64,000 nucleotides of DNA from Octopus vulgaris (Eukaryota). A program made the translations under genes and the position numbers. Below are positions 40,099 through 45,131 of this stretch, piece after piece (within the stretch, counting starts at the first letter, position 1; every line of letters starts with the position of its first letter). Under the pieces are notes generated by a model. It made no database searches, had not been told where the DNA came from, and worked only from the letters and a program-made list of their open reading frames with translations. The stretch is taken from assembly GCA_951406725.2 (NCBI GenBank), contig OX597820.1, positions 102,796,001 to 102,860,000 of the forward strand. Direction: 5' to 3'.

Positions 40099-43000
40099 TA
40101 TATATGAAAAAAGGTTTGAAAATGCAATTTAAACGATGTTTATTTACTTAACCGGTTTCACTCTTTGTTAAAAAGATTGTCAAAAGTAACATTGAATATT
40201 ATGGGTTCAAAAAAGTTTTTTACATAATTGTCACATTGAATATTATGAATTCAAAAATGTTTTTTTATACATAATTGTCACATTACATGTATAAATATAG
40301 TATAAAAAAGTTCAATAGTGTGATGAGAATATTTGGAAAAATTGGCAGAAAAGAATAAAACAAATATATTATTGGAAATTTGGTTGCGTTAATTATTGGT
40401 TGTCGCAAATTGTCACATTACATGTATATATATACAGTCTTTGGTAGAAATGACATGTTAAAGACATAAGGAAGTGTAATAGTTTGGTGAGAAAGCTTGT
40501 AATATTGACAGAGAAAATTAAAATGGATATTTTAGACATCTCAGAATATTTTGAATCGAAGGCGAGAATTTGTTTTTTACTGACCTGTTTGTTTTAGCAG
40601 AAAAGTTGAATTGAGAGAAAAAAAGATATGTACCCAATTTGGTTTATACTTCCCCTTCAAGCATCAGTGACTTTGGGGTTATTGGGAGGTGAGTATGCGG
40701 GTGTGAATAGATGTGTCCGTGTGCCTGCTGGTCAGACAGCGTCTGTTTGTCACACACATATATACACACACACACACAACAACAATACACACACACACAT
40801 AGTATACACACACACACCACATACACACAACACACACACACACAGAACACACACACACACAACGCACCCACATATATAATATATACACACAGCACACAAA
40901 TATAACATGTATTTATATATAATATACACACATATATAACACATACACACACAACACACACACACACACTGACACACACACACACACACACACATATATA
41001 CATAATATAAATATCACACAAATACACCTAGCATATATATACACATACAATACACATACACAGCATGTATATAATACACATACACAATATATGCATGCAA
41101 TATACATACGCAATACATACATATAATATATATATATATAGACAATGCATATACATATATACATATATACATATAAATAGTGTTTACATACACATACATA
41201 GATATACCACATATACACACAATATACATACATACAATGCATACACATACACGTACGCATACATATAAAATATATAGACACACACACACATAACATACAT
41301 ACACAATGCATACATATATATACACGCAACGTATATACATGTATTCATGTATATATAGCACACTTACAATATACATATATACAATGCACACATACACACA
41401 TATATACACTTAATTGTACACATACATATACAATACACATACATACAATATACATATACACAATGCGCATGCAAATAATGCACATGTTTATACACCCATA
41501 TACATGAAAATATATATACACACACACACATACACACACACATATATATATATACACATATATATATATATATACACATATACATACATACATACATGCA
41601 CATACATATATTTTTTCACACACATACACACACATATATATATAAAATTCACACACACACCCACACACACAAAATACAAACCTATAGTGTACACACTCAA
41701 ATATATCTCTACATACCGCACACACACACAAACAATGTACTCACATATACACACATACCATGCATATACACACACAGCACACACACATATATATATATAT
41801 ATATATAAACAAATACACATGTAAATACATACACTCGTACACAATGCTCACACACACACACATACACACACACACGCACACAGTGCACACACACACACAT
41901 ATATACACACGTGCACACACACACACACAACGCGCACACACACACACATACACACACGCACACAGTGCACACACACACACACACATATAAACACACGCGC
42001 ACACACACACACACAACGTGCACACTCACACACACACACACAACACTCACACACATACATAACCTACATATATATAATGCATGCGTGTGCGTGCCACGTA
42101 TGTGTGCGGTCAATGCCCGCATAGGACACACTAGCGGGCATTGACCGCACACATACGTGGCACGCACACGCATGCATTATATATATGTAGGTTATGTATG
42201 TGTGTGAGTGTTGTGTGTGTGTGTGAGTGTGCACGTTGTGTGTGTGTGTGCGCGTGTGTTATATGTGTGTGTGTGTGTGTGCACTGTGTGCGTGTGTGTA
42301 TGTGTGTGTGTGTGCGCGCGTTGTGTGTGTGTGTGTGCACGTGTGTATATATGTGTGTGTGTGTGCACTGTGTGCGTGTGTGTGTGTATGTGTGTGTGTG
42401 TGAGCATTGTGTACGAGTGTATGTATTTACATGTGTATTTGTTTATATATATATATATATATATATGTGTGTGTGCTGTGTGTGTATATGCATGGTATGT
42501 GTGTATATGTGAGTACATTGTTTGTGTGTGTGTGCGGTATGTAGAGATATATTTGAGTGTGTACACTATAGGTTTGTATTTTGTGTGTGTGGGTGTGTGT
42601 GTGAATTTTATATATATATGTGTGTGTATGTGTGTGAAAAAATATATGTATGTGCATGTATGTATGTATGTATGTATATGTGTATATATATATATATGTG
42701 TGTATATATATATATGTGTGTGTGTATGTGTGTGTGTGTATATATATTTTCATGTATATGGGTGTATAAACATGTGCATTATTTGCATGCGCATTGTGTA
42801 TATGTATATTGTATGTATGTGTATTGTATATGTATGTGTACAATTAAGTGTATATATGTGTGTATGTGTGCATTGTATATATGTATATTGTAAGTGTTAT
42901 ATATACATGAATACATGTATATACGTTGCGTGTATATATATGTATGCATTGTGTATGTATGTTATGTGTGTGTGTGTCTATATATTTTATATGTATGCGT

Positions 43001-44157
43001 ACGTGTATGTGTATGCATTGTATGTATGTATATTGTGTGTATATGTGGTATATCTATGTATGTGTATGTAAACACTATTTATATGTATATATGTATATAT
43101 GTATATGCATTGTCTATATATATATATATTATATGTATGTATTGCGTATGTATATTGCATGCATATATTGTGTATGTGTATTATATACATGCTGTGTATG
43201 TGTATTGTATGTGTATATATATGCTAGGTGTATTTGTGTGATATTTATATTATGTATATATGTGTGCGTGTGTTGTGTGTGTGTGTGTGTGTGTGTGTGT
43301 GTTGTGTGTGTATGTGTTATATATGTGTGTATATTATATATAAATACATGTTATATTTGTGTGCTGTGTGTATATATTATATATGTGGGTGCGTTGTGTG
43401 TGTGTGTGTTCTGTGTGTGTGTGTGTTGTGTGTATGTGGTGTGTGTGTGTATACTATGTGTGTGTGTGTATTGTTGTTGTGTGTGTGTGTGTATATATGT
43501 GTGTGACAAACAGACGCTGTCTGACCAGCAGGCACACGGACACATCTATTCACACCCGCATACTCACCTCCCAATAACCCCAAAGTCACTGATGCTTGAA
43601 GGGGAAGTATAAACCAAATTGGGTACATATCTTTTTTTCTCTCAATTCAACTTTTCTGCTAAAACAAACAGGTCAGTAAAAAACAAATTCTCGCCTTCGA
43701 TTCAAAATATTCTGAGATGTCTAAAATATCCATTTTAATTTTCTCTGTCAATATTACAAGCTTTCTCACCAAACTATTACACTTCCTTATGTCTTTAACA
43801 TGTCATTTCTACCAAAGACTGTATATATATACATGTAATGTGACAATTTGCGACAACCAATAATTAACGCAACCAAATTTCCAATAATATATTTGTTTTA
43901 TTCTTTTCTGCCAATTTTTCCAAATATTCTCATCACACTATTGAACTTTTTTATACTATATTTATACATGTAATGTGACAATTATGTATAAAAAAACATT
44001 TTTGAATTCATAATATTCAATGTGACAATTATGTAAAAAACTTTTTTTGAACCCATAATATTCAATGTTACTTTTGACAATCTTTTACCAAAGAGTGAAA
44101 CCGGTTAAGTAAATAAACATCGTTTAAATTGCATTTTCAAACCTTTTTTCATATATA
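40099..44157. repeat. About 4.06-kb palindrome with arms of about 2.02 kb and a 13-bp spacer at 42121-42133
   Basis: 40099-42120 is the reverse complement of 42134-44157; mirrored ORFs, for example 40628..40879+ and 43377..43628-. Confidence 0.97.
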
Positions 44158-45131
44158 ATCCCACTCGTGCGATACCCCACAACTCAACTTTTTTATATAT
44201 ATATATATATATATATATATATATATATATATATATATATATATATATATATATATATATATATATATATATATATATATATATATATATATATATATAT
44301 ATATATATATATGTGTGTGTGTGTATGGATGTGTGTATGTATATATATGTATGCTATATATATATATATATATATATATATATATATATATATATATATA
44401 TGTAATACACCTGGAAAGGGAAAAAAACGCTAATACTATAATATACTAAAACGAAAATTCTCTTATATAATTTGTTCAGCACTGATATCCTATTACATTT
44501 AGGAAGAATGCTGTGACTTGTGTCCTAAGTCAATTTGCATTGTAAAGTAAAATGACTATAACCAGATGCCATATATACACGCAAACTAAATATTTCACGC
44601 CAGATATGCATTATTTATATGGATTGAGGTCTTGTATCTTACAATCATAGTATTGCAATAGTCTAATCTTACTGAACATCAGCAACACCTGTTCAGATAA
44701 ATAGACATTATCATATACTTCACACGTATAAAAATGTTCAAACTTTACAAATGCTGTACCTCAAGAGCTTTCATTGTAGTTACAGTCTCGGTCGCTGTCA
44801 AATAGCATCTCAATATTGGACTACCACTACAGAAAAACATAACTTCACTGCTGGGAGATTGCCGTCATTCTACGATTAATATATATTTCATATGTCTCGT
44901 ATAATACAACTGAATATGCGCACAAATATTTCACGTAACCACCATCATCCACCATGTAAGGAAAAGAGAAACCGCTCCAACCGATTAGCAAACAACTGCA
45001 CACTGCTTGTAATACAATAACATATATTGTATCCTCTCAATATTTATTCCGGTCTTCAGAATAATCTAGATATGTATGATTTTTACCACTACATATATAT
45101 CCCTTTCTGATGAACTGTTTTACACTTGCTA

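Follow-up and report, generated by a model that had tools for sequence, protein, structure and literature searches.

The window analysed here is a stretch of 64,000 nucleotides from Octopus vulgaris (contig OX597820.1, positions 102,796,001 to 102,860,000 of the forward strand), and all coordinates below are counted within it. It contains a palindrome with arms at 40099–42120 and 42134–44157 around a 13-nt spacer. Global arm alignment and self-BLAST over 4079 columns place the two arms at 98.7% identity, in keeping with the arms of about 2 kb and the 13-bp spacer described in an earlier, sequence-only reading. With the termini excluded, five substitutions and ten small indels separate the arms in the global alignment, the latter mostly of homopolymer or repeat-unit length; scattered substitutions and changes in repeat length had been part of that description, as had the division of each arm into about 650 bp of complex sequence and about 1.35 kb of degenerate CA/TA repeats, which the window sequence bears out. 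The palindrome is set between two (TA)n target tracts (40052–40098 on the left, 44195–44401 on the right) and its ends are asymmetric: the right arm alone is followed by a tail of 36–37 bp on the forward strand, which the arm alignment places from 44158 to about 44194 and which corresponds to the unique extension already seen to precede (TA)n. A similar motif composed of AAC, a T-run and a TA-run lies at both outer ends of the insertion, 36–37 nt apart, and the 3-kb flanks on the left and right show no mutual resemblance. The window stub holds no RT sequence, and no host gene turned up in the window; the stub is without coding sequence and incapable of moving by itself.

Searched against the octopus's own genome, the complex right end gave 41 matches at 98–100% identity, spread over many contigs (40 scored of 1714 candidates). 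The tail motif has 44 exact matches in the genome and its sister form 308, counts that take in internal pLTRs, and about 350 tail-bearing ends are distributed across two subfamilies. Thirty-four related loci were fetched as the best-scoring matches, and because they were chosen in this way the set is biased to long direct arms. The longest of them (L031) has an upstream pLTR, an ORF1 and a 758-aa ORF, followed by about 2.2 kb of 3′ UTR, and it ends as the window copy does. Its 758-aa protein matches RVT_1 in Pfam (E 1.2e-7) and carries the motifs GxKF, DKG and YLDD, a CX4CxxC linker, and a GIY-YIG motif with two Cys, which occupies residues 667–681, C-terminal to the RT. A direct Pfam scan of this protein did not report a GIY-YIG domain; Pfam GIY-YIG (PF01541) is present on many of the at least 120 RT homologs listed, and the closest named homolog among the matches listed is a protein of Octopus bimaculoides (83%). 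The RT frame is open in many copies, which are 98–100% identical. A pLTR resulting from a partial tandem is present in L031, L035 and L047, and upstream pLTRs also occur in L069–L095. On these grounds it is close to certain that the palindrome derives from a Penelope-like element (PLE), and recently active Penelope families feature in the available part of an octopus repeat annotation (PMC13282606).

Comparison with L031 resolves the palindrome into a single insertion, in which a 5′-truncated, tailed direct copy and an inverted, tail-less copy lie head to head in (TA)n. The direct copy (42118–44194, forward strand) begins about 100 nt past the RT stop codon, within the 3′ UTR, and runs through 3′ UTR, pLTR and tail. 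The inverted copy (40099–42120, reverse strand) is likewise 5′-truncated and is 98.7% identical to L031; in the numbering of the L031 direct copy, which serves as reference, it spans positions 5923 to about 3887, that is, 3′ UTR and pLTR. Where the two meet, the uninterrupted element in L031 reveals 3 nt of microhomology (42118–42120), and the spacer (42121–42133, forward strand) aligns with L031 as ordinary 3′ UTR sequence that is present in the direct copy only. In the forward-strand arm a degenerate TG/TA microsatellite tract extends from 42195 to 43505, followed on the same strand by a tandem unit of about 45 bp (43972–44068) that has two copies in the window and more in the sister subfamily. 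The sequence-only reading had regarded the repeats as captured low-complexity cargo; since the start of either arm lies some 100 nt beyond the RT stop, the CA/TA tract is instead the element's own 3′ UTR, and it is a constant component of the longer copies of both subfamilies of this autonomous PLE. The tract and the predicted self-cutting motifs thus together constitute the element's own 3′ end. No substitution in the scored complex part is private to the window copy, which is therefore very young.

Several traits of the protein suggest, at the level of sequence, that the family is a Neptune-type PLE. Compared with the Fig. S2 alignment of PMC8557442, of which part was available, it has the C-terminal EN with CCHH and the long CX2-5CxxC linker of that clade. 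The distance from the linker to the next Cys is 24 residues in the octopus family, against 25–27 in the two Neptune rows counted and 7, a reduced linker, in the two Nematis rows counted, which speaks against the Nematis clade. The Hydra clade, which is without CCHH, has DKT for DKG and does not conserve GxKF, is ruled out since the octopus RT has both DKG and GxKF, and Naiad and Chlamys, with an N-terminal EN, are ruled out since the EN follows the RT in the L031 protein. The octopus copies differ from Neptune in adding an upstream ORF1 of about 447 aa, with which the RT ORF overlaps in the −1 frame. An in-phase U UUU UUA heptamer accompanies this arrangement in 18 of 30 RT-bearing loci, the other 12 (6, 4, 1 and 1) having other homopolymer lengths or a deletion, and a −1 frameshift between ORF1 and RT is accordingly predicted from the reading frames. 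L031 had suggested a +1 shifty-stop reading, which was rejected on the strength of those 18 loci, whose RT ORF falls in the −1 frame. Downstream of the slippery site, a search that covered hairpins, without pseudoknots, yielded none that was stable (−6.4 kcal/mol, against −7.9 ± 2.6 kcal/mol for shuffles). ORF1 matched no Pfam family above the cut-off and has five homologs, all unnamed. The Fig. 1 legend of PMC8557442 describes an ORF1 with frameshift and pseudoknot in some PLE types; in a search of the accessible literature, nothing on an ORF1 frameshift in PLEs was found beyond the accessible part of that paper.

Near each outer end of the palindrome lies a hammerhead-like motif, at 44068–44112 on the forward strand, sense to the ORFs, and at 40144–40189 on the reverse strand. 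The positions given for these motifs in the sequence-only reading hold, but the two are not exact mirrors of each other, as sequence comparison assigns the two stem-II loops to different alleles, both of which segregate in the family: the direct arm carries the older ribozyme-loop allele and the inverted arm the younger. By motif inspection, the right-hand copy has a helix I of 6 bp, a U3-A8 core, GAAA, a GUU triplet and a self-complementary helix III, the latter an 8-bp stretch with a duplex energy of −12.1 kcal/mol, and the cut is predicted between 44106 and 44107. The motif is a putative pLTR ribozyme of the minimal type I hammerhead kind found in PLEs, in its U3-A8 variant. This call rests on motif inspection because Rfam gave no hammerhead match: the search of 43950–44200 with E up to 10 returned two weak unrelated matches, and there was no hammerhead among the matches listed for the whole window (150 of 201). 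Free folding did not produce the active hammerhead fold. No common stop at the predicted cut was seen at the right end in three presumed-RNA runs and one DNA run. A separate count of truncations at that cut gave nine matches, about five of which look like true breaks, against nine and three at two control positions. According to the part of PMC4209133 available, the minimal hammerheads of metazoan PLEs have a U3-A8 core and a palindromic helix III, act as dimers, show low activity in vitro, and occur as motif pairs on opposite strands derived from truncated PLEs. The octopus motif has in common with them U3-A8, the palindromic helix III and the opposite-strand pairing; it differs in lacking the usual G10.1-C11.1 pair at the base of helix II, where its stem II starts with U, and in having two extra bases 3′ of stem II.

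The anatomy of the window copy recurs throughout the family. An inverted arm adjoins the direct copy in 31 of the 34 loci, ending at reference base 5923, just before the tail, in 28 of the 31 and within 3 nt of it in two more, and the tailed ends lie in (TA)n in all 33 loci scored. In the sister subfamily, sampled as 40 of the first 47 listed of the 308 (seven were skipped as probable internal or tandem ends), an adjacent pair was found in 27 of 40 loci, all 27 ending at the same site; the other 13 did not score. The junctions are all different among the loci scored, mostly with 0–4 nt of overlap or short inserts, and the centre junction string of the window copy occurs once in the whole genome. 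Arm lengths range from tens of bases to more than 5 kb. In the set of 30 loci used for arm lengths (L035, L065 and three loci without an inverted arm were left out), the lengths of the two arms show no significant correlation (rho 0.26, P 0.16), nor do they in the sister subfamily (rho 0.29, P 0.15), and the chance of finding one copy among 30 as symmetric as that of the window is P 0.32. With variable arm lengths and a unique centre, near-symmetry is thus no family trait. Nor is the palindrome a special fold-back of a low-complexity template, as proposed in the sequence-only reading. That reading was right to link the palindrome to the small ones through its hammerhead-like motif, its (TA)n target and its one-sided extension, and a fold-back-type event is retained as one candidate among others.

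This is a known kind of insertion. As far as the available text of PMC8557442 and PMC3846280 goes, the PLE layout consists of 5′ truncation, partial tandems that form pLTRs, an adjacent inverted truncated copy and a 30–40-bp tail at one end. The octopus family has the RT with GxKF and DKG, a GIY-YIG fused to the RT, the pLTR, and the inverted copy with a 30–40-bp tail, and it shares with endonuclease-bearing (EN+) PLEs, as described in those sources, the 5′ truncation, pLTR tandem, adjacent inverted copy, one-sided tail, (TA)n and pLTR hammerhead. It departs from them in that the 3′ UTR of the family, at about 2.2 kb, is unusually long and mostly degenerate microsatellite, that the arms of the window copy happen to be nearly equal, and that both of its ends lie in (TA)n, where a target duplication cannot be read. 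Animal non-LTR retrozymes, hammerhead-bearing non-coding inserts linked to PLEs (10.64898/2026.07.22.740005, available in part), were considered and ruled out, since the locus has no tandem short non-coding units and is instead a truncated copy of an autonomous element.

Taking everything together, the explanation that we regard as best, and as somewhat better than even in its full form, is a young insertion of an endonuclease-bearing PLE whose arms were primed from both cut ends of the target. In outline, pLTR hammerheads would cut as a dimer to yield a unit RNA, possibly circular, as published models imply; the nuclease would cut the (TA)n target; each 3′ end of the cut target would prime a cDNA, the two starting from similar TA-rich sites that lie 36 nt from each other on the element RNA; and both cDNAs would stop early, in the window copy 13–16 nt apart, and be joined through microhomology. 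The observations that speak for such two-end priming are the inverted arms that are longer than their direct partners, the lack of a significant correlation between arm lengths, the similar motifs at the outer ends and the discordance between the arms of the window copy. TA pairing is no general explanation of the tail, because the tail-less end of the small palindrome at 33889 has no TA tract. Two-end priming taken as a step in its own right stands, in our judgement, at an even balance.

A comparable process is L1 twin priming, where the second strand of the target serves as primer for another cDNA, and the two cDNAs, joined through microhomology, give an inversion. Second-strand priming and microhomology joining are the same in both cases, but the inverted part of L1 comes from further upstream, without duplication, whereas in the octopus PLE both arms originate from the same 3′ end, 36 nt apart. 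A search of the same literature found nothing on twin priming in PLEs beyond the available text of PMC8557442.

The principal alternative, which we hold to be possible if rather less probable, is self-priming, in which the truncated first cDNA would fold back on its 3′ end, through 3 nt of microhomology and a 13-nt loop, and copy itself, after which the far end would be cut or annealed at the inner TA site, any asymmetry arising from loop-out priming or from later central deletion. The junction geometry of the window copy fits this route, and self-priming has been proposed for PLE palindromes in PMC3846280, as represented in its available part. Near-symmetric copies are also more numerous than expected: arms within 30 nt of each other occur in 5 of 27 sister loci against 0.8 expected (P 0.0007, from rough BLAST lengths), two of these five being tiny stubs, and in the window's subfamily the excess is marginal (6 of 30 within 250 nt against 2.9 expected, P 0.052); L104, L110, L127 and L133 have spacers of 3–9 nt. 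This excess favours a palindrome-first route for a subset of copies. On the other side, inverted arms are longer than their direct partners in 5 of 30 loci of the window's subfamily and in 8 of 27 sister loci, 13 of the 57 scored copies, an outcome that one fold-back cannot give without later deletion. The window cDNA end also shows no unusual tendency to pair, its 3′-end pairing probability of 0.38 being equalled or exceeded by 14% of positions.

The alleles of the two arms bear on both routes. The ribozyme-loop allele is common to both arms in all 28 other copies, and in the sister set the arms agree in 221 of 224 allele cells, while private variants are found in both arms in 32 cases against 26 in one. 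Because the arms almost always share alleles, one template for both is required under either model, and the sharing of alleles and private variants fits self-priming equally well. The window copy, with its discordant ribozyme loops, is an exception, for which two templates, gene conversion and polishing are each a potential cause; the difference in family allele between its arms at this one site speaks against a simple snap-back in its case. L037 gives a similar hint, its inverted arm having two variants in common with L055 that are absent from the L037 direct arm. In L124, the loss of a repeat unit had affected the alignment and made the arms seem discordant, and that case was rejected. It is conceivable, though in our view unlikely, that the window copy is a rare record of two different RNA molecules in one insertion, left by a two-ORF, frameshifting Neptune-type PLE through twin priming at two equivalent TA-rich boxes; if that were true, such priming would explain the length of the tail and the inverted arm in one step. 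Overall, two-end priming is slightly favoured over snap-back, and a mixture of both is plausible.

Two further readings concern the palindrome itself rather than its formation. That selection by the host maintains it as a long hairpin, supplying dsRNA to ADAR or Dicer, or that it is a DNA element of the foldback/MITE type that moves as a palindrome, is improbable. If transcribed, its 2 kb at 98.7% complementarity would yield dsRNA, and in transformed Drosophila siRNAs matching inverted Penelope copies were produced from these (PMC3681739, in the part available); however, the junction is single in the genome and the copy is very young, and because the sense direction of the element points outward from the centre, a hairpin RNA would probably need read-through from outside. 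Asymmetric ends, a unique centre and variable arms rule out the foldback/MITE transposon. Least probable of all, and very unlikely, is a read fold-back or assembly chimera, raised in the sequence-only reading: homopolymer noise is evident in the assembly and no contig piece among those listed for four DNA runs bridges the centre, a hole that proves nothing, but a folded read would mirror tail and flank, whereas the left arm is tail-less at the very base used in 28 of the 31 other loci, the flanks are unrelated to each other, public contigs join the tail-less end to (TA)n (the loose end behind 44157) and a true polymorphism of the family distinguishes the two arms.

The palindrome, its supposed cargo, the motifs and the tail are thus all standard parts of a Penelope-like insertion. 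How PLEs form their inverted copies and tails is an open question in the available parts of PMC8557442 (Craig, 2021) and PMC3846280 (Arkhipova, 2013), and because the octopus family is very young, has about 350 tail-bearing ends and retains many open RT frames, it constitutes a natural data set for the mechanism of PLE insertion. For the octopus, it means that a transposable element spreads kilobases of CA/TA microsatellite, together with templates for long hairpins, through the genome.

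Among the palindromes of the Penelope-like element (PLE) family that were seen, the longest lies at locus L031 of the same genome (G000:C13:52242254-52253633), where an insertion of 11.4 kb comprises arms of 5.4 kb that share 99.5% identity. In the terminal repeat (pLTR) of this family the core of the hammerhead-like motif also differs between copies: the upstream pLTR of two other loci, L071 and L094, carries G at core position 8, so that the U3-A8 core has a naturally occurring U3-G8 counterpart.

A small palindrome bearing a 55-bp tail (window 33889-34207) has in common with the hammerhead-like motif of the 4-kb palindrome the core start TTGACAA. 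Because its right arm is the end of a high-copy repeat, with centres that differ at other loci, this palindrome is the stub of a different family. A third palindrome-plus-tail, at 27859-28075, contains a hammerhead-like string with a U3-G8 core.

Elsewhere in the window, two tandem units of 8.3 kb (7855-16072 and 16173-24390) are 99.9% identical, and each contains a minus-strand match to U4 snRNA that exceeds the Rfam gathering score (8218-8351 and 16534-16667, respectively). The units may represent a genuine snRNA array, or else a duplication made by assembly. A palindrome with short 25-bp arms occurs once per unit (11172-11250 and 19488-19566). Two degenerate ORFs (53434-53928 and 62807-63470), inspected by eye, resemble a non-LTR endonuclease and the integrase region of an LTR element.

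Among the homologs listed for the PLE reverse transcriptase (RT), several close ones (P0016, P0033, P0046, P0073 and others) bear the names of bacteria that live as symbionts in molluscs, and these are likely to be host DNA inside symbiont assemblies. In L070, a further locus of the family, and in 17 other loci, the RT ORF lies in the -1 frame relative to ORF1, and the overlap of the two contains a U UUU UUA heptamer in phase; a programmed frameshift is predicted from sequence in an endonuclease-bearing PLE.
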